From a virus (Duplodnaviria > Caudoviricetes), in IMG/VR virus record IMGVR_UViG_3300025924_000020, positions 30,963-94,962 of that record: a stretch of DNA of 64,000 bases, one strand, 5' to 3'. Below the pieces are notes generated by a model. The model saw only the letters and a program-made list of their open reading frames with translations, had not been told where the DNA came from and searched no databases. The number at the start of each line of letters is the position of its first letter. Positions within the stretch are counted from its first letter, which is position 1. The translations under genes were made by a program, and so were the position numbers. This document shows, one piece after another, positions 3,001-31,716 of the stretch.

Positions 3001-6000
3001 GTAATACATCATGAATTGGAACATGCATTCACAGTAGGTGTGTTAAAGAATCCACAGACTGAATTGGAGAAAAACTTCAACACAAATTTAAGTAGAGTAT
3101 TAGAAGAAGCTAGACAAAAATTAGGTATAGTCTACTATACTGAAAATAAATTTGAATTTATAGCTGAGTTAGCTTCAAATGAAGCCTTTAGACAGAAACT
3201 TAGAGGGGCCGACTTGTGGAGTAGAATTATTCGTTCAATACGCAAGGTATTAGGAATGAAAGACTCCTACGATAAACTTATAGAACAAAGGTATGAAGTT
3301 ATTTCACAAGGAGAAAAACTAGAAAGAAGTAGTGGAGTACTGGGTAAACCTGAAAATAAAAAACCAGGTAAAAAGCAGTTAACTATTTTTGAAAGCATGT
3401 TATCTTCTCTGGACTCTAGAGTTAGAGAATTAAAGAGAAGAAGAGGTAAAGAATCTGCTATAGAAACTGAAGCTGAATTAAAAGTACTCAAAGAACTAGC
3501 TAAGAAGAACGAGTCTGCAATGGCAGTCAGATACTTAGTGTATGTCAATAAGGAAATAGCTAAGCTTAAATCTATCTATGACTTGATGGATAAGACTCCA
3601 GAGAAGTTGAATGCTAAATTAATAGCTCCAATGTATGATCAATTACTATCATACAATTTACTTGACGAGTTACTGAAAGATGCTAAGACCAACCCAGATG
3701 CGTATGTGGGTAAGACTGGTGATATCAAGCAATTTATCACTGAAGTAAATAATCTAAGAGGTGAAGTGTCTGATTTACGACTAAAATTAGAGCACCTTAT
3801 TCCATATAGAGTAGCTAGTTTCATTAAAGATAATATTCGTCAAGGTCAGAGCTTTGAAGAGGTAGTAGATTCCCTTAAAGTAGCAAATGGTGATGTAAGC
3901 TATATAGCTAGATGGTTAACTCCATTTATTGAAGTGAATGATGACACTGTTAAAGCATTTGCTCAACGTTATGCTGAAATTGATATGGAAGCGTATCGTA
4001 AGACTCAAGAGGAATTATACAAATTTGATAAAGTACAGCAGAAGACTACTGTTAATTTAGGTAGCAACAGACGAGTAACAATAGAGTATACTTCAACTGG
4101 TGTAAATAAGGCTCTTGATGATTATGACAAGTGGTTAAAAAAGAAGGGAAAGAACCCAGGTTCTATTAGAGATAAATTTGATCCTATCCTAGATAAAGCC
4201 TCCTTTAATAAGGATACGAGTGAAGGTATTTCTTTTATAGCTCCTTGGACTAAGGAGGGTAAAGCAATCCTTTCCATTAAAGAAGGATCAGAAGACTATC
4301 CGTTAAAGCAGTTGTATGAAACTATTGTTCTAAATTATCTCAAGTCTCAAGAAGAAATTAAACTTCCATCTCAACGCCCAGGATTACGTATACCAACTAT
4401 TGGAAGAGATGTAATGGAAGGATTCTTGAAAGAAAAAGGTATTAAGGAGACTGCTGGTATGATGAAAGAGCAATTCCTGAATAACTTCATTGAAAGATTC
4501 GATGATAATGAGTATCAACAAGTAGACCAACATGGTAATGTAATTAAGGCTATTCCATTACGCTATACTTCTAAACAGGATGGTAAGGATGGTAGATTAA
4601 ACCTAAACGAAGTAAGTTTAGATGTAGCTTCCACCACTATGTTATTTCGTCATGAAATGATTAAAAGACCTATGCTTCTAGCAATACAAGATGATGTAGA
4701 ATTAGCTAAAACACAATTGGCTCAGCGTGAAGTAATGCAAACTAAACGCATTGAAGCAAGTGGTTTAACTCCATTCCTATCTTCTGAAAGAGAAGGTGTC
4801 GTATTAGAGAATGGCAAATATCAGACTATAAAAGGTTTAGAATCTAAAGCTTACAATGCTTTTCAAGACTTGATTGATCGTAAACAGTACGGTATAGTTA
4901 AGAAACGTGAAGGAGATATCAAAATTGGAGAGAAGAAAGTATCAGCTTCTAAAGCCCTAGATGCTTTCTTAAGATTCAGTGGATTTAGAATCATGTTTGG
5001 TAAAATTGCTATTCCTTTAGCTAACTGGAGTGTTGGTGAACTCACAATGATTAAAGAAATGATTGGAGGGAATATTATTGATTACAAAGATTATCTCTAT
5101 GGACAGAAGAAGTATAATCAAGTAGCTCTTTCATCACTTTCTGATTTAGGAAGAAGAGCTAAACAAACTGAGTGGGGTAAGTTATTCACTTACTTCAACC
5201 CAATGGATAATCTACGTCCAGTTAATACACTAGGAATAGACACGACTTGGATGAGAACAGTATGGCATAAGATTATCTCTACTGGAGGTCATACAGTTGA
5301 GTATAAACTAGCGGTAAACGCTTTAGGAGCTGTAATGAACAGGTTTAAGGTAGTTAATCCTGAAGGTAAGTTAGTCCCTATGGATCAGGGAATACACATC
5401 TCTGATGCTGGTAAATTAACTCTAAAATCAGGTTATAAATATGCTGGAAAACAAGGTAAGCAATATGAAAAGCCTAAGACTGAAATTAGTGACAAGGATA
5501 TTAACGAAGTAATACAATATACTCTACGTACTTATCAGCTAATGAACGGTGTGTATAATCAAAGTGATAAATCAGCTGCTCAAGCTTATACAGTAGGCCG
5601 TCTAGTAACCTTTATGCGTAATTGGTTAGTTCCAGGCTTACAAGCTAGATGGAATACAAAGCATTCAGATCAAAGATTAGGTATGGAGAATGAAGGATAC
5701 TACATTTCTTCTTTAATAGCCTTCAATAATATTTATGGTAAGAACGGATTCTTGAAGGGTACATTGGATTCTCTCAAGATGCTGTTCTGGTTAGGAGCTA
5801 GTGATCCTACAACTCTACTTTTACCTAATGAATTAGCTCTTTCTCCTGAAGAGCAAGATGATTTGATCAATATGCGTAAAGCCAATATCAGAAAGACCCT
5901 ATTTGAACTTTACATGATTGCTGGATTAGGTTTGCTTATCTTTGCTGGATATGATGACGATGATGATAGTTACATGAAGTATATGGCAGCTAGAATCAAA

Positions 6001-7587: not shown

Positions 7588-8092
7588 ACTTCTTTCTGTT
7601 TATTTTGTTGTAACTCTTGTGCATATCTTTAATTACTCTAATAGGTATCCATCTACCCGTCTTAAAGAATCTAATAAAGTTCCTGAAGATAGATTTCCAC
7701 AAAGGTATATCAAGAAATAGAATGTACAACTTAACAGTAAAGTCTTTGTACTTCTTTTTAATCAATTTATCTATGTAGATATCAATATAGCTCTCTCTAC
7801 AATGAGTATTGTCTACAAGAATATGTGAGATACTATCATCAATAAGTAGTGCTTTAAAGTTATCATAGAAAATCTGACTAACTTGAGTCTCTGTGTTTCT
7901 ACGATGTAGATATGGTTTAGGAAAGTGATCCTCCCTGATCTGATCTCTACTAACTACGCCTAGTCCACGATCACCTGGCAATATACCAAATGTGCTCTTG
8001 TACTTTTCAACATAGGTAGACTTACCAGCACAGGGAGGACCTGCTAAAATGATTATTGTTTTAAGCATTGTCTTCCACGACTTGATCTTCAA
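7568..8092 (-). CDS. P-loop polynucleotide kinase-like protein (AAA_33); likely start at MLKTII
   Basis: Walker A GPPCAGKST, SRD and VDNT motifs as in the PNK kinase domain. Confidence 0.8.
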   Translation of the reverse strand: MKIKSWKTMLKTIIILAGPPCAGKSTYVEKYKSTFGILPGDRGLGVVSRDQIREDHFPKPYLHRRNTETQVSQIFYDNFKALLIDDSISHILVDNTHCRESYIDIYIDKLIKKKYKDFTVKLYILFLDIPLWKSIFRNFIRFFKTGRWIPIRVIKDMHKSYNKINRKKYEQYIT

Positions 8093-9482
8093 TATTCACT
8101 TCCCCAGTCTTACTATCCTCATCTAATTGCTTAGATTCCTTCTCAAGGAAACGTTTACTCTTCAGCTTAAAAGCTGAAAATGTATCTTTCCCATCGATAC
8201 GTACTACAATACCTTCTGCTGGTACTTTATTGGTACAATAAGGACAATCTTTTTCTAGATATGAGCTAGATAGCAAACTCAATAGTTCGTTACCCCATTG
8301 ATCTACACCCTTTATGAAAGTTTGATTGAATATTTCTCCAGCTGTACCTTCATTAGCCCAACGATTTAGCTTTCCGTAGTACAACTCTTTTACGGTTTCT
8401 AATTGATACTTCTCACAATATCCTTTAATTTGATTCCAGCTAAATTCGATTGTATTGCCATCTGGTTTAGTGTAAGTGATACGATAGACTAGGAATTTAT
8501 GTTGTGCAGCATCAGTTTCTACAGGTCTTAGATCATCATTCCTTACACTACCAACCATACCAGTGTTACAACCGTAGTCATATGCTTTCTGTATAGCTTT
8601 ACCAGAAGGTAAGTATCCTACAATCTCACCATAAATAGTGATACCTTGTTCGATCTTATCTTTAATTTCATTCAACACTACTTTCCAAATATCTTCATTA
8701 TAGTATCCAGCGGTAGCTTCTTTGTTTACATATTGGTTTTTGATAACTGACCTACTTGAATAGAGTGTGTCATAAACCTTATCAACAATATTGAAGCCTA
8801 GAAGCTTACCTATTTTCTCCCAAACGGTGAGTTGTTTATTAACTAATACATTAGCAAACACTGCTGAAGTACCATGCCACTTATCTGTAATACAGATGAT
8901 ATCTTCTGGTTTGAATAAATGTAGATTCTTAGCTAATTGATTAGTATCTACATGGAATCTGAATTGATTTGGTACAAGTTTATCAAATCTCTTAAGTTTC
9001 TTGTTGAACCTAGATTCCTTAGCTGTAGTAGCATGTTGATGAACAATCTTGTACTTCTTACAAATGTTTACTCCATCAATATCAGTGAACTCATCACCTT
9101 CTTTTAACTGACCTCCCCAATTACCCATTAAAGGATATAAAGTATCAATAGGTGCTATGTAACCGGTAGATATAACTCCCTTAAACTTAATCGCTTTTAC
9201 TCTACCTGTGTCTTCAAAAAATCCAGGTTTAGCAGTTTGGTCGTAATTCAAGTTACTATGTCTAAATTCATTATTCGCACATAGATATGATGCTGCAATT
9301 CTACATTCAGCAGGAAAAAAGAGATATAACTGATTTTCATCAGCGTCTTTCTTTGTAAGAACATCATTACCGAATACAGTTACTTTGACTAAATTATCCA
9401 ATCCATCCACTTTTTGCTTAGGTGGAAGTTTGACGACTGTACATGCATAATTCTTAGAATCTTCTCTTATTTCTAATTTCAT
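8061..9482 (-). CDS. RNA ligase (Rnl2/DRB0094-like, N-terminal OB fold)
   Basis: Adenylation motif KWHGTS, IYGEIVG, EGIVVR, FKLKS; N-terminal KFKGVISTG OB motif. Confidence 0.85.
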   Translation of the reverse strand: MKLEIREDSKNYACTVVKLPPKQKVDGLDNLVKVTVFGNDVLTKKDADENQLYLFFPAECRIAASYLCANNEFRHSNLNYDQTAKPGFFEDTGRVKAIKFKGVISTGYIAPIDTLYPLMGNWGGQLKEGDEFTDIDGVNICKKYKIVHQHATTAKESRFNKKLKRFDKLVPNQFRFHVDTNQLAKNLHLFKPEDIICITDKWHGTSAVFANVLVNKQLTVWEKIGKLLGFNIVDKVYDTLYSSRSVIKNQYVNKEATAGYYNEDIWKVVLNEIKDKIEQGITIYGEIVGYLPSGKAIQKAYDYGCNTGMVGSVRNDDLRPVETDAAQHKFLVYRITYTKPDGNTIEFSWNQIKGYCEKYQLETVKELYYGKLNRWANEGTAGEIFNQTFIKGVDQWGNELLSLLSSSYLEKDCPYCTNKVPAEGIVVRIDGKDTFSAFKLKSKRFLEKESKQLDEDSKTGEVNIEDQVVEDNA

Positions 9483-9492
9483 ATTCTTTCTG

Positions 9493-10587
9493 TTATAGTA
9501 CTACTTCTAGCATACCTTTATTAATAAATACTGAATGCACATCATCTTCTTCTACAAAGATTATTTGCTTTTCAGCAGCTTTTGGATCATACATTTCCCT
9601 AACAGTTATGGGTTGATCTTCTTCGTACTTAGCTGTACCATTATACTCAATTCCATTTATAGAGATAGTAGCAGTCTTGTGATTTCTCTTAAGTGCTTTT
9701 AGAAAGTACTGATAAGTTTTAACGCTTACCCCCTCCTCAATCCTAGTTTTACCTTTTTCTGAAACTTCATAAATAGCATAAGTTGTATCTAAGAATTCTA
9801 GATTCATAGATGCACAACACTTAATAGGATCTTCATCAAAGATGTTTACCTCTGTAACTATAGCTTTGATAATATCTACAGTGATTAACTTTAGTCCTTT
9901 AACAAACTCAAGAATAGATTCCCTATATGATTTATTAGTCAATAGGTCATCTATGATCTCTTCAATTGTAGTACGCTCTAGATCAGTAAATGTTTCTTTG
10001 TAACGAATTCTTCCAGGACGGTTTAGCATATTCTCATTCAGGTACAGTTCATTAGTAGTAAGAATGAAAGTCCTTCTATACAATCCACTAAAGACACCAT
10101 CCATAAGTGTTAAAAGAGTATTGTCTTCTTTTATATCATCAGTGTCTGTTTCATGATTGTATCTAACAGTAACAGCATCAAAGATCTTATCATACTCATC
10201 AATGAATATAACTAGATCGGTGTCAATTTGAGATAGGAACTTAAGCATACCACCCAATTTCTTACTAATAATGATAATTGGAATTCCTAATTCGTTAGCT
10301 AATATTTTACCTGTAATAGTCTTGCCAGTACCTTTTACACCATTAAGTAATACACCAAGATTACCAGTACTATTTTTGTAGTACTTGAGTACTCTGTTTA
10401 TCAAGTCTGATTTAAGTCCATACAATTTGAAATCGAACTTGAAGGTATCACCCGTGTTATTTAAATATAATTCACCAGTATTTGGATCCGCTTCAAGAGT
10501 GTAGATGGTATTTTCCATTTTCTCTACATTACCAGATATGTCTCTCAAATACCAGTCATTATTGTTTTTCTGCCAAACTTTATCCAT
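9493..10587 (-). CDS. AAA+ ATPase
   Basis: Walker A GVKGTGKT, Walker B IFIDEYD, LLTLMDG, TTN sensor, RPGRI Arg finger. Confidence 0.9.
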   Translation of the reverse strand: MDKVWQKNNNDWYLRDISGNVEKMENTIYTLEADPNTGELYLNNTGDTFKFDFKLYGLKSDLINRVLKYYKNSTGNLGVLLNGVKGTGKTITGKILANELGIPIIIISKKLGGMLKFLSQIDTDLVIFIDEYDKIFDAVTVRYNHETDTDDIKEDNTLLTLMDGVFSGLYRRTFILTTNELYLNENMLNRPGRIRYKETFTDLERTTIEEIIDDLLTNKSYRESILEFVKGLKLITVDIIKAIVTEVNIFDEDPIKCCASMNLEFLDTTYAIYEVSEKGKTRIEEGVSVKTYQYFLKALKRNHKTATISINGIEYNGTAKYEEDQPITVREMYDPKAAEKQIIFVEEDDVHSVFINKGMLEVVL

Positions 10588-12453: not shown

Positions 12454-13061
12454 GGAATGTACAAGTTAGTTGGATTATTTTTGTGGATTTCATGCTCCTT
12501 GTGATGTGAGATTGTAAAACTTGCAAGGTTGAATGGTTGAGTAATAATATGCCAACCAGATTTTGATGGTAAGATAGCTAGCACCTTGTAATCTCTGTTA
12601 TTTATTTGCTTCTGCAGTGAAGTTATGAAATCTGCTACATCGTCAGCTGCTTTTCTATCAGGATTATCAATGTCAATTAACCACCTTTTATCAATCTCAG
12701 AATGATATTCACCACACACGGAATCGTAAGCTTTCCTAATACTATAGAAATCTCCATTAGACATTTGGTTGGCTATTTTCTGTAATACATGAAATCCAGC
12801 TTTCTGAAAGTTTCTAGGATTAAGGTTGATACTTACCCTAGCTTCAAACAATTGAGCTAGTTTGATCATTTCCTCTTTATGTATATCTAGCTTTTCTTGT
12901 GAAGTGATATAATAGGCTTTGATTAAGCGGGAGTTGTTATTACTTCCACCTAATCTTTCACCTTTATGGTCTTTCTTCCTTTGAAGAATCTGTACGAAAT
13001 AGAAACAGTCCTTATGAGGAAATTCAAGTAATGGTTTAATTAAATCAAAATTATCAACCAT
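12450..13061 (-). CDS. Conserved phage protein with AEP (primase-polymerase)-like motifs
   Basis: WLIDID (DxD) and SKSGWHII (sxxGxH) motifs. Confidence 0.55.
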   Translation of the reverse strand: MVDNFDLIKPLLEFPHKDCFYFVQILQRKKDHKGERLGGSNNNSRLIKAYYITSQEKLDIHKEEMIKLAQLFEARVSINLNPRNFQKAGFHVLQKIANQMSNGDFYSIRKAYDSVCGEYHSEIDKRWLIDIDNPDRKAADDVADFITSLQKQINNRDYKVLAILPSKSGWHIITQPFNLASFTISHHKEHEIHKNNPTNLYIP

Positions 13062-14577
13062 AACTAGCTAATCTATCTCTGATTTCCTGAAGAGTGGTAG
13101 TTTTCTCTAGCTTACCATCTTTAAAGACAGTTTGTAGCAGCCAAGTATTTTCTTGCTCCCAAGTACATTGATCTTGGACGAATAAATTACCATTTTCATG
13201 TTGACCTACTCGTAACAATCCTTTCTTACTTTTCTTAGTTCCATCATCAGTAATTGGGTCTTTGAAGATTTCTCTTCTTTCAGTCCATTGTGACGGTTCA
13301 AGTGCTTCAGGAGATCTGCCTTCAGGGTAGCCCGTCATTTCAACTTCTCCATATGTCGCTTTCATTGCGAAGCCAAAAGTATCCCTAGTATTGTGCTGAT
13401 AAGTATAAGAGCCAATCCCAAGTACAACATTCGTAGATGCAAATCCTTTTGCCTTAAGTCTTTCACATATTTGCCTCGCACAGTCAAGGGTGATAGAATC
13501 ACCGTAGATAGCACCAATATGAAAATCCAATTCTTTATATCCATATTCATTTATTTTTCCTCCAAACAAATCCCAGAGAAGTTCAATGACTCCTTTTCTT
13601 TCTGCTTCAGAAATAGCTTTACCGCCTTTATCATACCAGCCTATTGTATCTTTATGAAGATCATCTCTTCCACAAAGAATATCTACTGGATTGCCTGAAT
13701 CGGGTCTAATTACTAGTTTACCATCTCTTGCAAGAATTTGTTCTTTGATTTTAGGAAGTATTTCAGTTAGAACTTTCCAAAGATCCCAAGTATCACTAAC
13801 AATACTGAGAATTCCAGTAGGATAAAGCTTAAGCAGCCTGCTGAAAGTGTCAATTTCATTTTCTTTGATGCCCATACACATAACACTGTGCTCTGTAGCA
13901 GGAACACTTGCACCAATGAGTCCACTAGCACCATAAGACTGTTCAAGCTGGTAAATTGCTGGAATAGTATCAGTGCCTGTAAACGAGAGTAAATGACCCA
14001 TGCCAGAAAGAATACTAGACTCAATGCTAGACATTCCCCGCATAGAGAAATCGTGTCCTTGCCACGGTACAAAGTCCACAGATCCAGTGGTTTCCTTTGC
14101 ATATTTCGATAGTAATTTCTTGTATTCATAAGCAATTGTTGCTGAAGTGGTAGGTTGCCATAGCATTGCAGACATTAGTGTCTCAACGTAGTTAGTGAGC
14201 CAATAAAAATCAGGATGTGTATTCTTGATTGTGAGTAGTGGTACTCCAATAGGACACAGTGTTCCCTCGGGAAGAGCTTTAATTTCTAATGGTAGATAAC
14301 CTAGATCGTGTAAAGCTTCAATATGTTTACTATCCACATTGATATGTCTTTTATACTCTTCTATTACTTGTGTTTTGGGTAGTGCAAAGAAATGACGAGT
14401 AAATTTATCAGTTAGATACTGTAGAATGAAGTGCTGTACACCAAATACAACTACCTTATCTATTCCAGGAATCCTACTCTTTCTTGGAGTGAGGTTAGAA
14501 TAGATCAATGTTGTACCTTCTGGATACATCTTATGATGTTCTGTTTTGTAAAAATCCGTATATAGTAGTGGATTCAT
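13054..14577 (-). CDS. Nicotinamide phosphoribosyltransferase-like protein (NARP1 Namat-type)
   Basis: TDFYK, HDFSMRG, GTDT, ATEHS, SDTWD, IRPDSG, IYGDSIT, TRDTFGFAMKAT, KKSKKG motifs. Confidence 0.92.
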   Translation of the reverse strand: MNPLLYTDFYKTEHHKMYPEGTTLIYSNLTPRKSRIPGIDKVVVFGVQHFILQYLTDKFTRHFFALPKTQVIEEYKRHINVDSKHIEALHDLGYLPLEIKALPEGTLCPIGVPLLTIKNTHPDFYWLTNYVETLMSAMLWQPTTSATIAYEYKKLLSKYAKETTGSVDFVPWQGHDFSMRGMSSIESSILSGMGHLLSFTGTDTIPAIYQLEQSYGASGLIGASVPATEHSVMCMGIKENEIDTFSRLLKLYPTGILSIVSDTWDLWKVLTEILPKIKEQILARDGKLVIRPDSGNPVDILCGRDDLHKDTIGWYDKGGKAISEAERKGVIELLWDLFGGKINEYGYKELDFHIGAIYGDSITLDCARQICERLKAKGFASTNVVLGIGSYTYQHNTRDTFGFAMKATYGEVEMTGYPEGRSPEALEPSQWTERREIFKDPITDDGTKKSKKGLLRVGQHENGNLFVQDQCTWEQENTWLLQTVFKDGKLEKTTTLQEIRDRLASYG

Positions 14578-19980: not shown

Positions 19981-20356
19981 ACTTCCTTAACTTGTTAACC
20001 ATTTTCATGAAATCAGTCATGTACAGAATAGCAAATTTATCTTTAGTGATAAACCTACTGTTTACTTTTTCTGTTTGATTATGTAGTATGACATTCACAA
20101 TATTAGCTTCTTTGGGCATCTCAGATAGTATCTTGCCATATGTTAAATGACCTTTTACATTCTTACATTGTACTGACCAAGGTAATCTACCATGTAAAAT
20201 CTCATCTTGATTCACCAGATCTATCCCTTGATTATCTCTAGCTCTGTTTGCACTTCTAGATGTTACACAATTAACGAATCCAACTTTCCTAAATTCATTA
20301 GCACAATCCCTCTCAAATTTATGACCACTAGCTCGATTTCTCTTACCGTTCGTCAT
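19928..20356 (-). CDS. Holliday junction resolvase-like PD-(D/E)xK nuclease
   Basis: GHKFER..TSR..DNQGIDL..VQCK. Confidence 0.75.
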   Translation of the reverse strand: MTNGKRNRASGHKFERDCANEFRKVGFVNCVTSRSANRARDNQGIDLVNQDEILHGRLPWSVQCKNVKGHLTYGKILSEMPKEANIVNVILHNQTEKVNSRFITKDKFAILYMTDFMKMVNKLRKYESTISRPVVSTTGGGA

Positions 20357-21147
20357 AATACCTCTTCTGAATTCATAATCATTTTAGCCCGATTTAAAAA
20401 CTCCTCTTGAGTTAATTTAGGTTGTGGCGGCACTAAATACTCTACTATTTGTGCCCTAGTTAAATGTTCTACTTTAATCTGTTTGAGATCATCTAGTGGA
20501 CTTTCAGTTTTAAATGCATTATCTGTATAAGTCTCTCTAACTACCTTTATATCACTATAGGGTAGTGTCACTGGTTTTTCAGTATAGATACATGCCCTAA
20601 CGTACTTCAAATGTTTAGCTTTGATTAGCACTAAATATAGGGGTGTAAATACAATCTTATCAGTTCTGTAATCAGCTAGCCCAGGGTAAAAAGTATTTCT
20701 TATTGATGCAATTGTCTGTCTACGATTGCTGGTATAAGTTACTAGTCCAAAGTCTCCTATTATAGAAGCTGTTTCGGTTCTTCCCCATTCTGGAGAACTA
20801 AATGTAAATCCACGAATAGAATTACCTGATGAGGTTGAATCACCATAGTGTAGACAGTATTTGTCAACTACAGGACTATCGAGAATCTCTACTAAATTTT
20901 TCTTAACTAGTTTATCAAACTTTTTTTTCCAATTTTCACTTCTATCTTCTCTACCCTGCCATCTAGAAGCGATAGTAGAATAGGCTAATGTATCTTTATC
21001 ATTATAATACATTACGCTAAGGTCACCAGTTTTAAAGACAGGTAATAACTGTGCACAAAATAATGGCACAAATTGCTCTCCGCTTGATATTTTGATATAT
21101 CCCTGGTGATGCATTCCCGCATAGACGTCTTTTGCCTTTATATGCAT
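20353..21147 (-). CDS. Hypothetical protein overlapping the E1 gene
   Basis: 264 aa ORF. Confidence 0.7.
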   Translation of the reverse strand: MHIKAKDVYAGMHHQGYIKISSGEQFVPLFCAQLLPVFKTGDLSVMYYNDKDTLAYSTIASRWQGREDRSENWKKKFDKLVKKNLVEILDSPVVDKYCLHYGDSTSSGNSIRGFTFSSPEWGRTETASIIGDFGLVTYTSNRRQTIASIRNTFYPGLADYRTDKIVFTPLYLVLIKAKHLKYVRACIYTEKPVTLPYSDIKVVRETYTDNAFKTESPLDDLKQIKVEHLTRAQIVEYLVPPQPKLTQEEFLNRAKMIMNSEEVL

Positions 21148-21884
21148 AATTCTTCTACTTTAGGTTGTTCAAATAACATTAATGGTAGATTAAAATCTAA
21201 CTGTGTTATTACTTCTCTAGGTAGCACTTTAGGTACTTGGTTATTAAACCAATTTGTAATTTGGGATACCATTAATGCACTTATTAAGGCCCCACAGTGA
21301 GTAGTAGCCTTCATAGTACATTGAGCTTCAGGTAATTCACTATCATCAAAACAAGAGTTTCTATAATGACTTATAGTTTCTTCTGAGCTATCTTTTGGTA
21401 TAGCAAATACGTTACCTTGCTCCATTGACATTCTACCATCAACAAATAAGGATATTTCTTTACCATACTTTAGCCATAATTCAAAGACTATCTTTCTAGC
21501 TGCAATATTATCAAATGATACACAGACTACATCGATAGCCCTTAACATAGAAGCTATAGTTGGGTCATCCTCCTCTATTTTGTGGTTAAGGGGTGTTAGT
21601 TTAGTCTCTCCACATAGATAAGTTACAACTTCAGCCATCGCATCTACCTTAGACTTACCTACATGGTCTTTACCGTATAGCTGTCCAGCAATATTATGCA
21701 ATTCGACATCATCATAATCAACTGTAACTAGTTCAGCGCCAGTTCTAGCTAAGAATAAAGTTAGATTAGAGCCTATACCCCCTTGACCACAAATTAAGAT
21801 TGAACTACTAGAAATACCTTCAAACCAAGGTGCTCCCTTAAATCTACCGTAATACTCAGCAGTGTTCTTTTTTGTACGTGTCAC
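21138..21884 (-). CDS. E1-like ThiF/MoeB-family adenylyltransferase
   Basis: GQGGIGS, DYDDVELHN, KVDA, FDN..AR, DGRM, putative catalytic Cys in AQCTMK. Confidence 0.9.
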   Translation of the reverse strand: MTRTKKNTAEYYGRFKGAPWFEGISSSSILICGQGGIGSNLTLFLARTGAELVTVDYDDVELHNIAGQLYGKDHVGKSKVDAMAEVVTYLCGETKLTPLNHKIEEDDPTIASMLRAIDVVCVSFDNIAARKIVFELWLKYGKEISLFVDGRMSMEQGNVFAIPKDSSEETISHYRNSCFDDSELPEAQCTMKATTHCGALISALMVSQITNWFNNQVPKVLPREVITQLDFNLPLMLFEQPKVEELCI

Positions 21885-22917
21885 AGACAGTTTCGATTTT
21901 GTTTGCTAACCAATTATCATCATGCAACTTAACAAACTCCTTTACTGCATCAATGGCTTCTGCCTCTTTAATGTTAGTATTGAAGAAGTAAGCATCAAAC
22001 CAATAGCTTTTAAAGTACTGCATAAATGCTTTCTCATAAGTTGGTAAAGCTGCTGTAGTAACTAAGGTATTGGCTTTATTTAAAGCATCTTTAGGAGCTA
22101 TGTTCTTAGGGTCGTGACCCAACAGGAGCAACTCAGGTATTTCATTGAGTACTTTTCGATAAATATTCTGATCTACACCTTCAGGTTTATAAACCTTATT
22201 TACACTACTGTTAGTAGAGCTTTTATGATCAAAACCTATTCTATTAGGTACATAAACCGTTGTTTTCCTGTTCTTCAATTCAACTTCTTCAATTTGATTG
22301 ATAAGCCATTCCTCACCTTCATAAACGGTATCACAAGGAACTATAATTACACCTTTCCTCTTTTCTTTCTTCTGGTGCTTAGTAATTTGTTTCTTCAACC
22401 ATTTTGGTATAGACCATGTTTCAACTCCTTCAATCTCCTTTTCGTATTCGATAGAGATCTCAGAGAACGGTTGACAATCATAATTGCATACAACAGATAA
22501 AAACATTGGACTAGTAGGCGCATTGTCTACTAAGTCTTGAGTGTCTATACCTGAGTGAAATGCTCTCATGTTATGATGTGAGTGCAATTTACCAATATAA
22601 TATCCGTTATCTTTATCTTGTCTTGTAGGGTCTATCTGTGGGAACAATTCGAAGAATTTAATCCAGCTTTCATTTCCTTCAAATGAAGTAAATGTAGCAT
22701 CGCCAAAATCCATAAGGAATACATTCTCACAGGTTAGTTCCAATTCTGCTTCATCGTTGTCTAGAAATTCTTCTACACTACCTTTGGTAACTTTGTACAC
22801 CAATAACCCAGACCATTCTTTATTGGTTGGACATTGATTATGTAGAAGTGTTATTTGAGCTTGAAGCTCTGTTGTTAGCAGTACTTCTGCTCTTTTTTGT
22901 AATTTAAATGTTTCCAT
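21856..22917 (-). CDS. JAB/MPN+ (JAMM) metallopeptidase
   Basis: EWSG ... HSHHNMRAFHSGID = E..HxH-x7-S-x2-D. Confidence 0.88.
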   Translation of the reverse strand: METFKLQKRAEVLLTTELQAQITLLHNQCPTNKEWSGLLVYKVTKGSVEEFLDNDEAELELTCENVFLMDFGDATFTSFEGNESWIKFFELFPQIDPTRQDKDNGYYIGKLHSHHNMRAFHSGIDTQDLVDNAPTSPMFLSVVCNYDCQPFSEISIEYEKEIEGVETWSIPKWLKKQITKHQKKEKRKGVIIVPCDTVYEGEEWLINQIEEVELKNRKTTVYVPNRIGFDHKSSTNSSVNKVYKPEGVDQNIYRKVLNEIPELLLLGHDPKNIAPKDALNKANTLVTTAALPTYEKAFMQYFKSYWFDAYFFNTNIKEAEAIDAVKEFVKLHDDNWLANKIETVCDTYKKEHC

Positions 22918-24124
22918 TAAGTTTTGGAATATCTGAAAATATGTTATTTATTTCTTTCACTACCCTTCTGAAGAATGCATGTGACACTCTTAGGATAGTC
23001 TCATCTGTTGATTTTTCTACGGTCTCTGGTATGATCCTAAATGTTCTATTATACCAATGCTCTAATACTTGGCGACACTCTAATGGTAAATCACCATAAG
23101 TTGGAGGTCTACTATTAGAACCATTCCTAGCATTGTCAAGCATGTAACTGTTCATTGATAGGTTATATTTGAGAAGATCACTGGAGTGTATACTAGCAGC
23201 TAGCATTTCAGTAACTTTCCTCTCTATTTCAAACATCTTTTTACTAATTTCAATACTAGATAGCGACAAATAATTATCACCATTATTATGTGTAATCATA
23301 TCTGGTGTAAGTTGTTCGATTACTAATATAGCAAATTTTCGTATAATTTGATTTGAAGAATACACGCCGTTACTCGCTGTATCGGTTAGTGGAGTAACAC
23401 TTTTTAAGTTACTAATTGAAATATAAGGATTACCCTCTAAACTTTCCCATGATAAATAAGCATTTAGTTGAGCTAAGTATAACCCAAATTCTGCAGGAGT
23501 TAGACTGATTTTAGCTTTCTCATAGATCTTGGACATTGGTGTACCTGAACCCATACAAAAACTTTGAAAGTTATACAGATCTTGTCGTAAATGAGAATGT
23601 CCATAGATGTTATTTACTTCTCTTTGACTTAATGCTGCTCTCCACCCATACATGGCATTAAAACAAGTTTGAGTGTTGTTAACCGAAAGCTTAATTATTA
23701 GGTCTTCGACAGTGTGGGTTTCACCAGTATCATTAGTTAATGTTATACTAGGATATCTAAGATAGATACAACCATTGCTTCTATTAATCCAATAATTACC
23801 AGGCATTTCAATCTGCAGAATCTTCTCAGCTATTTCATAGATATCATCTTCTGTTTCTACTATAGTACTACTATCTGGTAGAAGTATGAACCGTCTTTCT
23901 AAAGTAGGAATGCATGTCACTTCGTAAACGCCCCTATCAAGATATCTAGTCCCTACTGACCGCACGGGTATCTTTTCTGGCCATGCAGTTCCTCTCCAAG
24001 GACTTATAGTATTAGAATAATTTAGTCTTAGGTTACCATCCATAGCCCAAAAGGCCTCAGAGCTACCTGATGTACCATTGTACTTAAGAATTTCTTCTTT
24101 TGTTGTTTTTAACGTTTTTATCAT
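22904..24124 (-). CDS. Prokaryotic E2-like conjugating enzyme domain protein
   Basis: YGHSHL..FCMGSG (His + catalytic Cys), WESLEGNPY; lies between the Ubl and JAB genes. Confidence 0.7.
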   Translation of the reverse strand: MIKTLKTTKEEILKYNGTSGSSEAFWAMDGNLRLNYSNTISPWRGTAWPEKIPVRSVGTRYLDRGVYEVTCIPTLERRFILLPDSSTIVETEDDIYEIAEKILQIEMPGNYWINRSNGCIYLRYPSITLTNDTGETHTVEDLIIKLSVNNTQTCFNAMYGWRAALSQREVNNIYGHSHLRQDLYNFQSFCMGSGTPMSKIYEKAKISLTPAEFGLYLAQLNAYLSWESLEGNPYISISNLKSVTPLTDTASNGVYSSNQIIRKFAILVIEQLTPDMITHNNGDNYLSLSSIEISKKMFEIERKVTEMLAASIHSSDLLKYNLSMNSYMLDNARNGSNSRPPTYGDLPLECRQVLEHWYNRTFRIIPETVEKSTDETILRVSHAFFRRVVKEINNIFSDIPKLNGNI

Positions 24125-24137
24125 AATTTATAATGTA

Positions 24138-24167
24138 AAAAAGTCTAGGTTTTACCCTAGACTTTTT
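24138..24167. terminator. Bidirectional intrinsic terminator inside the Ubl operon
   Basis: aaaaagtctagg-ttttac-cctagacttttt. Confidence 0.75.
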
Positions 24168-24175
24168 GATGTAAG

Positions 24176-24391
24176 TTAGAAGGGAACTTCGTCATCTATT
24201 GGATCGTGTGAACTTATATAGTTTACACTAGTACTATTTGATGCATACCAAGTAGGATTAATAGCTTGAGTATACACCATACCTGAACTTCCATAATCCA
24301 TTGTTTCTTTAGAAGATTCCTCTGTCTTTACTACATTACTTTCAGAAGATTGGTTAAAAAACCAATCTACTATTTGCTCAATTGTTTCCAC
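24176..24391 (-). CDS. Small protein with an SSB-Ct-like acidic tail
   Basis: GTG start overlapping the Ubl 3' end; ends DPIDDEVPF. Confidence 0.55.
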   Translation of the reverse strand: METIEQIVDWFFNQSSESNVVKTEESSKETMDYGSSGMVYTQAINPTWYASNSTSVNYISSHDPIDDEVPF

Positions 24392-24647
24392 GACCAGAAT
24401 TGTTCTTACTCATTACAAAGTAGAGAGTAAAATCTCCTGCTGGGAGTGTTTGTGAATCTGAAGTAAGATTGATGCTTTGACCAGCGTATTTAATCAAAGC
24501 ATTCATCCCACTAATAGCAAGTGCGCCAATCTTTGGTTCTTCTTCTTTCAATTGCCCCCATGTAGCAGCGGCTGAGAAAGTTTGACCAGAGGAGTTTTCT
24601 CCTCCTTGAGTAGAACCATAAGTAATCGATCTAGTTGCTTGTGACAT
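24378..24647 (-). CDS. Ubiquitin-like (beta-grasp) protein
   Basis: 89 aa; TWGQLKE helix, LPAGDFTLYFV last strand, C-terminal SG+RGNN; upstream of E2-JAB-E1. Confidence 0.7.
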   Translation of the reverse strand: MSQATRSITYGSTQGGENSSGQTFSAAATWGQLKEEEPKIGALAISGMNALIKYAGQSINLTSDSQTLPAGDFTLYFVMSKNNSGRGNN

Positions 24648-24649
24648 TC

Positions 24650-24922
24650 TTAAGCAGCAAATTCAGTGTCAAGAATTGATTGTGCAGTCGTTAGATCTGC
24701 TTTGTTTTGTGCTACTTCAGCTGTCAATCCCATTACTTTCTCTACATTAAATGGAACTGCTCCAAGAGCATCATTGTATGCAGCAGCCAAAGTAGCTGAT
24801 TGAGCTTTAAGTGAAGAAACTTTTTGTTCTACAGATGCACGTGCATGTGCTTCTGAAGTTGTTGCCGATGCTTTCTTCTTTTCATCAGCTGATTGTTGGA
24901 GCCTATCCAAATATTTGGACAT
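24650..24922 (-). CDS. Ala-rich helical/coiled-coil protein
   Basis: 90 aa ORF ending 2 nt before the Ubl start. Confidence 0.75.
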   Translation of the reverse strand: MSKYLDRLQQSADEKKKASATTSEAHARASVEQKVSSLKAQSATLAAAYNDALGAVPFNVEKVMGLTAEVAQNKADLTTAQSILDTEFAA

Positions 24923-24974: not shown

Positions 24975-25322
24975 CTATTTTGTAAATGATTTGTTTCTAA
25001 AATGGAATAGATAAAAGACTGCATTACAGATAATATGTCCCATATGATGCAAACCTGATTCTGGATCGGTTTCTTCTTTATTGAATAAAGCCACCAAATG
25101 TCTCTGCATAGATTCTAAGATCTCTTCTCTATTTAATCCTTTCTTCCAATTGTCAGGAGCATATTTTTTACTACCAAACATCAGGACTTTAACGAATTCT
25201 TTGAGACTTTCCCAGTCTACCAAATTCCATTGTAGTTTACCTTCATTGAATCGGTCTGCTTTCTTTACTTCTCCTCCTCCACTAATGGCTTCCCAGTCGT
25301 AGAAGTGTGTTATTTTATTCAT
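24975..25322 (-). CDS. dATP/dGTP diphosphohydrolase-like domain protein (DUF5664-type)
   Basis: GK.W.LV..V..FG.KKY..DNW.KG..RHL..DPESGLHH.GH..CN. Confidence 0.85.
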   Translation of the reverse strand: MNKITHFYDWEAISGGGEVKKADRFNEGKLQWNLVDWESLKEFVKVLMFGSKKYAPDNWKKGLNREEILESMQRHLVALFNKEETDPESGLHHMGHIICNAVFYLFHFRNKSFTK

Positions 25323-26326
25323 ACTAGCATTTCATCTATAATTGTCTTTGCTCTTTCAAATCCAACAGCTTTACATAGATCTGTTTTATCTTTTGCTTCC
25401 TTTAGAAATCTAGGTTTGATCCAAGGATACTTATCTAGATACTTCTTAGTAGTTCTTTCTCCAGTCATATCAGGGTCTAGAGTTAAATAAATCTCTTTGA
25501 ATCGATCTTTTAATTCCATCATTTTACTATCAGGTATCATAGTACCTTCACTTCTAGCACATATAGCTTCGTATCCTAATCTACGACAAAAAATAACGTC
25601 CTTACATGATTTATCTATGATCAGCTTCTCACCCTGACTAGGTAATTGTATGTAGCCGAAAAAATAATTATCGGGTAGATCGTTACGAAACTTAAATGCC
25701 TTTTCTGCAAAAGGGCTATAAATCTGATAATATTCTCCTGTTCTATAACTGAATGTTGGGTCTGGTACTGTAAAGGGAGCTTTCTGCTCATTATAAGACC
25801 AGTACCACTTAATTTGATCTACTTTGTAAAGCTCTAAAAGAGCTTTATCTATTCTGAATTGTTCCCAATATTTACGTCCTTGCTCTGTGAAAGGGATAGG
25901 AGCAATACGTATTTTGATGTCAGTAAGATTTGGTCTATCGTAATAGCTTATCTTTTCTCTCTTTTCTACTGGAGTCAAGCTATAACCTAAGCCAAAGTCC
26001 TCATTAATCTTTGAGTACACTTCAGTTCTAGATAAATTAAATATCTTTTGGATCAATTTAAAAATTGTACCAGATTCATCACTAGCACTATCCTTCCACA
26101 TATAATCTACTCCTAATCCACTATTGGACTCATAAATACTAAAACTTGGAGTTGTATCTGATCTATAGGGACAGGGTAATGCTCGATGAAGTGGTATGTT
26201 ATCATAATCAACATAGAAACAGTAGAGAGTATACTCATCTACTTGTTCTAATATTGATTGTTCTGTTGGAATAATGGACTTGTATAATTCGTCAAAGTCC
26301 ACTTCTCTATTGTTATTTTGTTGCAA
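25319..26326 (-). CDS. DNA primase (crAss-type, TOPRIM)
   Basis: CPYRSDTTPSFSIY, WKD, KSCKDV, LDPD..G, KDKTD. Confidence 0.85.
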   Translation of the reverse strand: MQQNNNREVDFDELYKSIIPTEQSILEQVDEYTLYCFYVDYDNIPLHRALPCPYRSDTTPSFSIYESNSGLGVDYMWKDSASDESGTIFKLIQKIFNLSRTEVYSKINEDFGLGYSLTPVEKREKISYYDRPNLTDIKIRIAPIPFTEQGRKYWEQFRIDKALLELYKVDQIKWYWSYNEQKAPFTVPDPTFSYRTGEYYQIYSPFAEKAFKFRNDLPDNYFFGYIQLPSQGEKLIIDKSCKDVIFCRRLGYEAICARSEGTMIPDSKMMELKDRFKEIYLTLDPDMTGERTTKKYLDKYPWIKPRFLKEAKDKTDLCKAVGFERAKTIIDEMLV

Positions 26327-30454: not shown

Positions 30455-31716
30455 AATCTTTCAATGTTTAAGTCTTCTTTCAATGTAATTGTTTTAGAGT
30501 TAGTAAGATTAAATGATGCTGTCATTTTATCTGCCCAATTTCTTGCTTGTGTTGCTATTGTCATTTTGGTAAAGCTACCATTAACCTGCCTAACCATCTC
30601 CTCAAAGACTGGTATAAGAATGTATACTTTGAGAGTTTGATCTGGTCTTAGTCTTAATCCTCTACCATGTGTCTGCACAAAAGATGTTTCACTCCCATCA
30701 TATGATTCATAGATAATGGTATCTACTCCAACTAAGTTAACGCCTCTATTCACCTTCTTAACTACAGCGACCTCTTTTATTTCTCCAGAGTTGAGTTTAT
30801 CTAATGCAGTATTATCTTGTTCATTTTTACCATGAAATGGGTTAGGTAATTTATCACATTGCTTAGTTAATGAGCTGAAAATCAATATCTTATGACCTTC
30901 TTCTTGGTGTATCTTATTAATTAGATTCTGAGTTACTTTTATAGAAGAATCTAAGTTGTTAAGTATAGACTTTCGCTTAGTAGCTTTTATTTTGAAGTTC
31001 CAATCGGCAGCCTTCCAATCAGCTTGAGTACTAGCAATAACATTCATAAGTCTATACTTCTTTTCAAGATTTGCTTTAACGATCATAGCTTTATGATACT
31101 CTTTATCATAGTATTTGTATTGATCGTTTTCAGATGTCATAAACTTACCACCATCTCTCTTCTTCTGCTCTATTGTTTTCTGTTTGCTTAAAGGATACTT
31201 AACGAATATGAATTCACTCTTGTTTAGTATACCTGCTTCTTGTAGGTCTTGTACTTCTGCTTTGTAACAGATTGGCAAGAAGCTATTGATAAATGCTTCT
31301 TTCTCTTCAGTTACGAAACCAGTCATACCTAACACTATTTTACATTCATTATTGTCAAAGAACTTTTTGTATTCTTCAGCAATAAAGTCTAACTCATCTG
31401 CTATTACTAGATCGAATTTCCTACCAACCCATTTATAAGCTGTTTGGTAGCACTCTGATTCAATAGATTCCCATCTATATCCCCACTTATCAAACTCTTT
31501 CTTCCAGTTTTCATCTCTAAGAAGAGTAGAGTTAGTAAGAAGTAATATTTTGTCATAACCATTTACGTAATATTCTTTCAAAAAGAATTCTTTTAGAATA
31601 TCTATAGCAATCTTAGACTTACCACTACCTGTAGGAACTACAATAGTATTCTTCCTATCACTTTCTAACCACGCGGCTTTTGCTTCTTGTTGTAGTCTCT
31701 CTCTTGGGTCTTGCAT
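30451..31716 (-). CDS. Superfamily 2 helicase
   Basis: PTGSGKS, IADE, GMTG, RGVNL, QTHGRGLR. Confidence 0.9.
   Translation of the reverse strand: MQDPRERLQQEAKAAWLESDRKNTIVVPTGSGKSKIAIDILKEFFLKEYYVNGYDKILLLTNSTLLRDENWKKEFDKWGYRWESIESECYQTAYKWVGRKFDLVIADELDFIAEEYKKFFDNNECKIVLGMTGFVTEEKEAFINSFLPICYKAEVQDLQEAGILNKSEFIFVKYPLSKQKTIEQKKRDGGKFMTSENDQYKYYDKEYHKAMIVKANLEKKYRLMNVIASTQADWKAADWNFKIKATKRKSILNNLDSSIKVTQNLINKIHQEEGHKILIFSSLTKQCDKLPNPFHGKNEQDNTALDKLNSGEIKEVAVVKKVNRGVNLVGVDTIIYESYDGSETSFVQTHGRGLRLRPDQTLKVYILIPVFEEMVRQVNGSFTKMTIATQARNWADKMTASFNLTNSKTITLKEDLNIERL

Follow-up and report, generated by a model that had tools for sequence, protein, structure and literature searches.

Outside eukaryotes, cascades built from E1, E2 and JAB enzymes and a ubiquitin-like protein (Ubl) have to date been characterised only as defences of bacteria against phages, namely the Bil, Bub and type II CBASS (signalling by cyclic oligonucleotides against phages) operons. 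What, then, would such a set of genes be doing in a phage? This question is raised by a locus in the window, a stretch of 64,000 nucleotides (positions 30,963 to 94,962 of the IMG/VR virus record IMGVR_UViG_3300025924_000020), in which a cassette of four co-oriented minus-strand genes at 24647-21138 appears to encode a Ubl, an E2-like protein, a JAB peptidase and an E1. Sequence conservation and predicted structures indicate that the cassette probably specifies a phage-encoded cascade of thioester Ubl activation and conjugation, which would operate in the replication phase of infection. Each of the six genes named in the original prediction, a note drawn up from the DNA letters (p90, Ubl, E2-like, JAB, E1 and Y264), was confirmed as an open minus-strand frame with the coordinates given here and further below. 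The features that carry the argument are listed here, with positions counted within the window.

24378..24647, minus strand: Ubl precursor of 89 residues, a beta-grasp domain ending in K-N-N-S-G85 plus four extra residues, RGNN
24393..24395, minus strand: codon of Gly85, the predicted C-terminus of the mature Ubl and predicted JAB cleavage site
22904..24124, minus strand: E2-like protein of 406 residues, with a predicted UBC-like core, an HxH motif and the invariant Cys190
23555..23599, minus strand: predicted E2 active-site loop, comprising H176-S-H178, 11 residues and C190
21856..22917, minus strand: JAB/JAMM metallopeptidase of 353 residues, with the catalytic domain at about 1-150 and a helical C-terminal region after it
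21138..21884, minus strand: single-domain E1-like adenylating enzyme of 248 residues, with the GQGGIG loop and Cys189
20353..21147, minus strand: Y264, the fifth cassette gene, from a fast-evolving family

The four cassette proteins

The 89-residue protein had been proposed to be of the beta-grasp type, and this was borne out by its AlphaFold2 (AF2) model, which shows a beta-grasp with a predicted local distance difference test score (pLDDT) of 83. All 50 best matches in a VIA search with this model were ubiquitin-like folds. The best was 4wip_A (DIX; Z 8.1), and others were MoaD 6jc0_A (Z 7.1), FAT10 (Z 6.6) and BubA 9eav_C (Z 6.1); Foldseek gave a probability of 1.00. By sequence the Ubl matched no family, and a word-seeded homologue search returned only 1 relative. 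Related loci supplied a set of 37 diverse Ubl domains, each taken from the gene that lies upstream of the E2-like gene. In the alignment of these domains Gly85 is the sole invariant column (37/37), and the family consensus LPxGDFxLFLxPxKxKSG is followed by 1-267 further residues.

For the 406-residue protein a UBC fold with a conserved Cys had been predicted. Its AF2 model (pLDDT 89, predicted template modelling score 0.82) comprises a beta-rich N-terminal domain (residues 1-92), a UBC-like core (about 93-245) and an inserted or C-terminal alpha/beta region. The 50 top matches of a VIA-wide search with this model were almost exclusively E2, UEV and RWD chains, with Z values from 6.3 down to 4.8. 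The best of these was UBE2J2 2f4w_A (Z 6.3, root mean square deviation 3.9, 123 residues aligned), and BubB 9eav_D was found at Z 5.0. A second VIA search gave UBE2L6 (Z 6.2), followed by Ubc15, Cdc34, UFC1, Atg10 and Atg3. Among 67 homologues G160, E169, H178, C190, G192 and a WES.EG.P block are invariant, and H176 and S177 are nearly so. The sequence HSHL..FCMG of this phage belongs to a family motif that reads Y-x-H176-S/P-H178-L, about 11 residues, F-C190-x-G192, with HPH in a few members. DSSP places this motif in a loop after the fourth strand (155-166) and before the helix at 196-204. Canonical E2 enzymes have an HPN..Cys active-site layout, which the H176..C190 arrangement resembles.

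By sequence the E2-like proteins constitute a separate, undescribed family. An exhaustive HMMER search yielded 1763 representative clusters (at 50% identity), 398 of them at E <= 1e-10; the word-seeded search returned only 3-4 relatives. No PADLOC match and no significant match among PDB sequences were obtained for the protein. ESM Atlas offered nothing usable for it or for Y264, and its structural neighbours in BFVD (predicted viral structures) are all listed as "uncharacterized".

The assignment of the third and fourth genes to the JAMM peptidases and to the ThiF/E1 enzymes stands, the motif residues of both being conserved in relatives. The JAB motif of the window protein reads EWSG..HSHHNMRAFHSGID; among 44-63 homologues E34 is conserved to 97%, and no variation occurs at H112, H114, S122 and D125. 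Of 44 JAB homologues, 20 matched the Pfam family Prok-JAB at E <= 0.01 (4.4e-6 at best), and no other family competed with it. The JAB family profile retrieved no JAMM chain from the PDB sequences, only helical-bundle noise from its C-terminal region.

The E1 scores 91.2 bits against Pfam ThiF (PF00899; cut-off 28.1, E 7.4e-26). A profile of 47 homologues, run against PDB, matched UBA5 best (1.6e-13), then MccB, UBA3, ThiF, UBA1 and TcdA (1e-13 to 1e-11), matches that show no clear subfamily. With E. coli MoeB the protein was aligned by hhalign at 97.8% probability over MoeB residues 29-184, and D125 falls on the DN motif of MoeB. In the 47 sequences G33, G35, D125, R130, R151 and C189 are invariant, and the conserved positions comprise G33-x-G35-G-I-G-S39 (GQGGIG here), R14, D56, D58, N64, Q68, K79, D125-N126 and R130. 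The Cys in AQCTMK had been described as C-terminal. It is in fact residue 189 of 248, just past the block aligned to MoeB, and it appears from the alignment to lie in the crossover-loop region. Its consensus is PCTxK, and it stands 6 residues past the MoeB-aligned block as against 3 for MoeB C187, so that the match is approximate. The CxxC zinc motifs of MoeB are absent from the E1. The motifs singled out in the original prediction, KNNSG|RGNN of the Ubl included, were thus all recovered, and each is conserved in relatives; only the position of the E1 Cys had to be corrected.

Gene order, Ubl tails and surroundings

The original prediction took the four genes to be a complete conjugation operon. 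The synteny was surveyed in 85 loci, namely 80 from IMG/VR found by the E2 family motif, two close relatives, crAss001, Flavobacterium phage Fpv1 and the window; their ORFs (open reading frames) were clustered, and 76 non-redundant loci were used for gene counts. The E2-like gene is present in 76 of these, the Ubl in 75, the primase in 73, JAB in 72 and E1 in 66, and where a cassette gene is missing the contig mostly ends inside the cassette. In every complete non-redundant locus (65/65) the order is Ubl-E2-JAB-E1, at protein identities of 20-50%. The idea that the four genes are chance neighbours or decayed remnants with no joint function is contradicted by this identical order at such divergence and by the invariant catalytic residues, and its probability is practically nil. 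In crAss001 the cassette corresponds to gp79 (Ubl-tail), gp78, gp77 ("metalloprotease domain"), gp76 ("thiamine biosynthesis protein ThiF") and gp75.

In its occurrence the cassette is all but confined to phages. When one genome per prokaryote species (185,579 genomes) was scanned for the motif, 3 loci were found, all on contigs of metagenome-assembled genomes (MAGs) and all with the same gene order; the scan used the strict pattern WESLEGxPY, which makes 3 a lower bound. A homologue of the primase or of the uracil-DNA glycosylase (UDG) accompanies the cassette in 2 of these 3 loci.

Some individual loci depart from the common form. Locus L087 (JBMNLZ010000002.1, 13573-25944) contains E2-like, JAB, E1 and UDG genes, and no Ubl was detected in it. 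Some 20 kb separate it from the end of a 640-kb 'Bacilli bacterium' MAG contig; its local GC content is 33.5%, and it may represent a phage that was integrated, or wrongly joined to the contig, in a host group where none was expected. The E1 gene is split into two ORFs in L029 (about 9245-9829), L082, L026, L041 and L069, and the JAB gene in L018, L028, L030, L033, L057, L006 and L002. Sometimes an ORF of 265-355 residues (cluster x55) stands between the halves, which suggests introns or homing-endonuclease insertions.

The flanking genes had been regarded as possible specificity factors or substrates. Of the two, the 264-residue gene proved to be a constant part of the cassette, the 90-residue gene, p90, an occasional one. 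A gene of 166-461 residues follows E1 in nearly every locus. The clusters of this fifth gene appear unrelated by BLAST and are joined by hhalign (c23 with c36 at 96%, c21 with c23 at 94%, another pair at 92%, and c23 with c26, the cluster that holds Y264, at 81%), and an N-terminal F/Y-V/I-P-L motif is common to them. These profile comparisons and the constant position after E1 mark Y264 as a genuine and conserved fifth gene of the cassette. No Pfam domain, and no DUF6527 in particular, was found in 37 fifth-gene proteins, and DUF6527/BubE had no match in the whole phage at E 10. Homologues of p90 occur in only 14-15 of the 85 loci, mostly immediately upstream of the Ubl.

Most relatives carry a protein behind the invariant Gly of the Ubl. 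The residues that follow it have a median number of 69; among 67 motif-bearing Ubls the tail comprises at most 5 residues in 12, this phage included, and at least 20 in 55. Long tails open either with a helix motif, L..KF.EA.EEII.EI, or with a SAP/HeH-like sequence, S-Y-K-E-L-R...G-K-N-Y-T...E-L-R (L063, L021, L050, L079, L053 and L001, the latter being crAss001 gp79). This SAP/HeH-like start suggests that the released tail protein may bind DNA. Charged low-complexity linkers form the middle of the long tails, and their ends are short conserved peptides such as ..RKELGL, ..QKNLGLFD and ..EAREMSAGYR. In the clade of the window the Ubl is short and is accompanied by a small acidic ORF in the +1 frame, with its own start codon and a tail-like N-terminal helix. 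In the window this ORF, which was not in the gene list of the original prediction, is the following.

24176..24391, minus strand: p71, an acidic ORF of 71 residues in the +1 frame, overlapping the 3' end of the Ubl gene and ending in DPIDDEVPF

This ORF belongs to the cassette. Its N-terminal helix motif and the like +1-frame ORFs of close relatives indicate that p71 corresponds, as a protein of its own, to the tail that most relatives carry joined to the Ubl. Counterparts end in similar acidic PF tips (EEDDTPF in L003, RFEDPF in L008, EEYIPF in L028 and PDLPF in L057), and in L030 the tail is likewise encoded as a separate gene. Among the 187 long frames of the window p71 alone has such an acidic PF-type end. 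The C-terminal DDDIPF peptide is the tip of bacterial single-stranded DNA-binding protein (SSB), and by analogy the PF tip of p71 resembles this docking peptide, while the ..LGL(F) ends of other tails resemble C-terminal clamp-binding motifs. Since p71 and its counterparts each have their own start codon, a programmed +1 frameshift that would link the Ubl with p71, though conceivable, was set aside. Locus L033 has two tandem Ubl-tail genes, at 4697-5143 and 5215-5688, upstream of the E2-like gene.

It had been proposed that JAB trims the Ubl after Gly85, and the comparison of relatives lends support to this. In most lineages tail and Ubl form one protein, in others the tail has a gene of its own, which is what cleavage of the fused form at the Gly would lead one to expect. 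This pattern is the strongest indirect support for processing by JAB.

The window lies within a 94,962-bp record whose completeness is rated 100%. Hallmarks of crAss-like phages in this record are a giant ORF of 2090 residues, terminase, portal and major head protein genes in a row, and DNA polymerase, helicase and RNA ligase genes. The minus-strand ORFs follow one another in the order primase-like, p115, p90, Ubl, p71, E2-like, JAB, E1, Y264, a resolvase-like gene and UDG, with overlaps of a few bases between most adjacent genes of the cassette region. The surrounding features are:

25319..26326, minus strand: DnaG-type primase, the constant upstream neighbour of the cassette; its crAss001 homologue gp80 is annotated as DNA primase
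25322-24975, minus strand: p115, ORF between the primase-like gene and p90
24650..24922, minus strand: p90, predicted helical protein of 90 residues directly upstream of the Ubl, accessory and not universal
24138..24167, minus strand: hairpin of 12 base pairs with a U run behind it, located between the p71 and E2-like genes (-16.3 kcal/mol, z -5.35)

None of 200 shuffled sequences folded as well as this hairpin. It looks like an intrinsic terminator or attenuator, and in the latter case may set the ratio of Ubl to enzymes. The phage also encodes a nicotinamide phosphoribosyltransferase (PHROG E 3e-193; 13054-14577, minus strand) and an RNA ligase (8061-9482, minus strand), which are possible responses to host defences that deplete nicotinamide adenine dinucleotide or cut tRNA.

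The cassette region gave no blastn match among phage records, and no description of the cassette was found in the literature searched, which did not extend to subscription journals. In public records its genes are labelled either "thiamine biosynthesis" or "hypothetical". A phage protein family similar to UBA5 receives brief mention in a 2026 virome preprint.

The proposed cascade and its alternatives

From the folds, the conserved catalytic residues and the synteny observed here, we infer the chemical steps and the kind of target as follows. The Ubl would be made as a precursor, which the JAMM peptidase would cut after Gly85, removing RGNN in this phage and freeing a tail protein of 20-267 residues in most relatives. 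Gly85 would then be adenylated by the single-domain E1, which is probably homodimeric, as MoeB and UBA5 are, and which may carry the Ubl on Cys189. The Ubl would then move to Cys190 of the E2-like protein as a thioester and go on to a lysine of a target, selected by the extra domains of the E2-like protein and/or by Y264. Reversal of the tag by JAB is also possible. In Bil operons, which have the same gene order, JAB pre-processing and E1-to-E2 thioester transfer were shown experimentally (10.1101/2023.09.26.559546), and this was counted in favour of the cascade.

A number of observations weigh against this cascade. No E3 and no target were identified for the cassette. The E1 has neither a separate Cys domain nor a ubiquitin-fold domain for docking of an E2. 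The Ubl terminus is S/A-G across the family (Ser-Gly in this phage) and not G-G. The window JAB stays below the curated cut-off of Pfam Prok-JAB (21.8 bits against 25, E 1.8e-4). For the 406-residue protein the predicted core is UBC-like with the caveat that the Z values are middling (5-6.3), and Cys190 is, by motif position, a candidate for the catalytic Cys of E2 enzymes. Foldseek searches of PDB with this model gave no match at E <= 0.001, the top row being fungal Ube2O at E 0.03, and the Pfam E2 families UQ_con and Prok-E2 were matched by 0 of the 67 members, even at E 10.

It could be argued that the cassette serves processing only. The Ubl would then be a cleavable N-terminal chaperone or pro-domain for the tail and JAB would merely separate the two halves, comparable to ubiquitin in its ribosomal-protein fusions or to TAPI/TAPK in lambda tail assembly, while the E1 and the E2-like protein would bind or adenylate the Ubl for a purpose other than tagging, e.g. 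as a stable replisome scaffold. The long tails of 55 of the 67 Ubls, many of which have a SAP/HeH-like motif and end in a conserved peptide, agree with this, as do the lack of a known target and the Ubl and JAB without E1 or E2 that were predicted in lambdoid tail clusters (PMC1779556). However, the 12 Ubls with tails of 1-5 residues, that of this phage included, have no cargo to release, and the invariance of the E1 adenylation residues and of the E1 and E2-like Cys across very divergent phages is hard to understand without chemistry at the Gly, which makes a processing-only role unlikely. A counter-defence role is similarly unlikely. Directed against host immunity of the Ubl-based or CBASS type, it would share its mechanism with the proposed cascade and differ only in target: JAB would strip host tags from phage proteins, or E1 and E2 would tag and disable a host defence protein. 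Bil systems do tag phage tail proteins, JAB enzymes reverse such tags, and captured defence parts are frequent in phages; the fifth gene and the outer domains of the E2-like protein, moreover, evolve as fast as arms-race genes. The cassette, however, is a fixed core of the replication module in very divergent phages rather than a variable accessory island, PADLOC matched only its generic E1 and JAB models (its E1-E2 models match the E1 core), and a bare JAB would be enough for stripping, whereas this phage brings its own Ubl.

Another alternative is sulfur transfer: the Gly of the Ubl would be adenylated by E1 and converted to a thiocarboxylate, as in ThiS, MoaD and TtuB, sulfur would be passed to a nucleotide, a cofactor or DNA, and the 406-residue protein would be a sulfur-transfer or sulfur-insertion enzyme. 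The E1 has the size of MoeB and ThiF and aligns with both, MoaD is among the good fold matches of the Ubl, and the locus lies amid genes of nucleotide and DNA metabolism. The partner, however, has a UBC-like and not a sulfurtransferase fold, the Ubl does not end in GG, and the zinc motifs of MoeB are missing from the E1. No match to rhodanese, cysteine desulfurase, ThiG/ThiH, MoaE or PP-loop thiolase was found in those conserved cassette genes that the Pfam scans covered (the other neighbour genes in the 85 loci were clustered only), and none of those families is annotated in the crAss001 or Fpv1 loci. A sulfur carrier is accordingly regarded as very improbable. All three of these explanations fit the invariant Cys of E1 and E2 and the UBC-like fold less well than the conjugation cascade does.

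Within the conjugation cascade, the fixed place of the cassette beside the primase and the tail ends that are like an SSB tip or a clamp motif point weakly to targets in the replisome. In its specific form, as a replisome-directed tagging system and phage counterpart of the ubiquitylation or SUMOylation of PCNA, this idea is speculative and, on balance, rather doubtful. The tail, which in its long forms has the SAP/HeH-like and thus possibly DNA-binding motif, would bring the Ubl-tail precursor to the replication fork, with the SSB-like PF tip in this clade or the clamp-binding-like ..LGL/..LGLF ends in other clades, and JAB would free the Ubl there. E1 and E2 would then attach the Ubl to a phage or host replication protein, leading to a switch of replication mode or to takeover of a host factor.

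If the conjugation cascade is real, phages would tag proteins with a modifier of their own, and in crAss-like phages and their relatives that infect Bacteroidota the logic used in bacterial defence would form a fixed core of the replication module. Carriers of the cassette include cultured crAss001 and Flavobacterium FpV-type phages, and crAss-like phages rank with the most abundant human gut viruses. More than 1700 clusters at 50% identity are counted in the E2-like family alone. The cascade would also be a minimal one, with a MoeB-sized E1 that has a putative crossover-loop Cys and an E2 whose HxH..Cys is nearer to the eukaryotic HPN..Cys than is BilB, and its Ubl-cargo fusions recall the fusions of ubiquitin to ribosomal proteins. 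The hypothesis is directly testable in cultured phage-host pairs.

Comparison with known systems

The cassette belongs to neither Bil nor Bub, although these bacterial operons are the closest known systems. Bil operons, which act in anti-phage defence, consist of BilA (Ubl), BilB (E2), BilC (JAB) and BilD (E1) (10.1101/2023.09.26.559546; 10.1101/2023.09.04.556158). The cassette shares with them the gene order, the trimming by JAB of residues past the reactive Gly (predicted here), Cys chemistry in both E1 and E2 (likewise predicted here), and the lack of an E3 gene. BilD, however, is a multidomain E1 (IAD-AAD-CYS, with zinc), whereas the E1 of the phage is a single domain of 248 residues, and in BilB the Cys comes first (C138..E144, H146, H151), whereas here HxH precedes the Cys by 12 residues. 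An E2-like protein of about 400 residues with extra domains, a fifth gene, a usually long Ubl tail protein and a location in a lytic phage replication module instead of a defence island further set the cassette apart from Bil.

Type I Bub operons are composed of BubAB, BubCD and BubE (10.1101/2024.11.21.623953). Here the order of functions is the same (Ubl, E2, JAB, E1 and a fifth protein), the E1 likewise consists of a single domain and has its reactive residue, a putative one in the phage, in the crossover loop, and the Ubl is made (in most relatives of this phage) as one chain with a polypeptide behind it, with a JAB cut at a conserved Gly that is predicted in the phage; BubB and BubA are also among the fold matches of the cassette. 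Type I Bub, however, works through oxyesters (E1 Tyr370 and E2 Ser333/His335), while both sites are invariant Cys in the phage family. Its Ubl-E2 and JAB-E1 fusions contrast with the separate genes found here, where the Ubl is fused to a tail that is not an E2, and its DUF6527 protease BubE has no match in the phage.

A short E1 consisting of a single adenylation domain, with a candidate Cys in the crossover loop, is also shared with UBA5-UFC1-UFM1 and with MoeB and ThiF, the partners of MoaD and ThiS. UBA5 is the best PDB profile match of the cassette E1, and UFC1 chains are among the fold matches of the E2-like protein; by sequence, however, the cassette E1 is not in any of those subfamilies. 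An E2 partner is lacking for MoeB and ThiF, which also possess CxxC zinc sites.

For phages, a 2006 survey of prokaryotic Ubl systems described only a tail-assembly Ubl with JAB (PMC1779556). In this TAPI-TAPK pair of lambda and T1 a phage Ubl, which ends in a conserved Gly and is extended C-terminally, is accompanied by a JAB predicted to cut it, as in the cassette, but the pair lacks E1 and E2, belongs to the tail module and has its JAB fused to an NlpC/P60 domain (PMC1779556). Type II CBASS uses the same E1, E2 and JAB chemistry in Cap2 and Cap3. Cap2, however, is an E1-E2 fusion that conjugates the CD-NTase and not a Ubl. No significant CD-NTase match was obtained here, the sole hit being that of E2-family profile positions 57-121 to CdnD of CBASS in PDB (E 0.15), which is non-significant and was treated as noise. 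What is new here among the prokaryotic E1/E2/JAB/Ubl systems is the E2-like sequence family, the Ubl-cargo precursor and the setting in phage replication.

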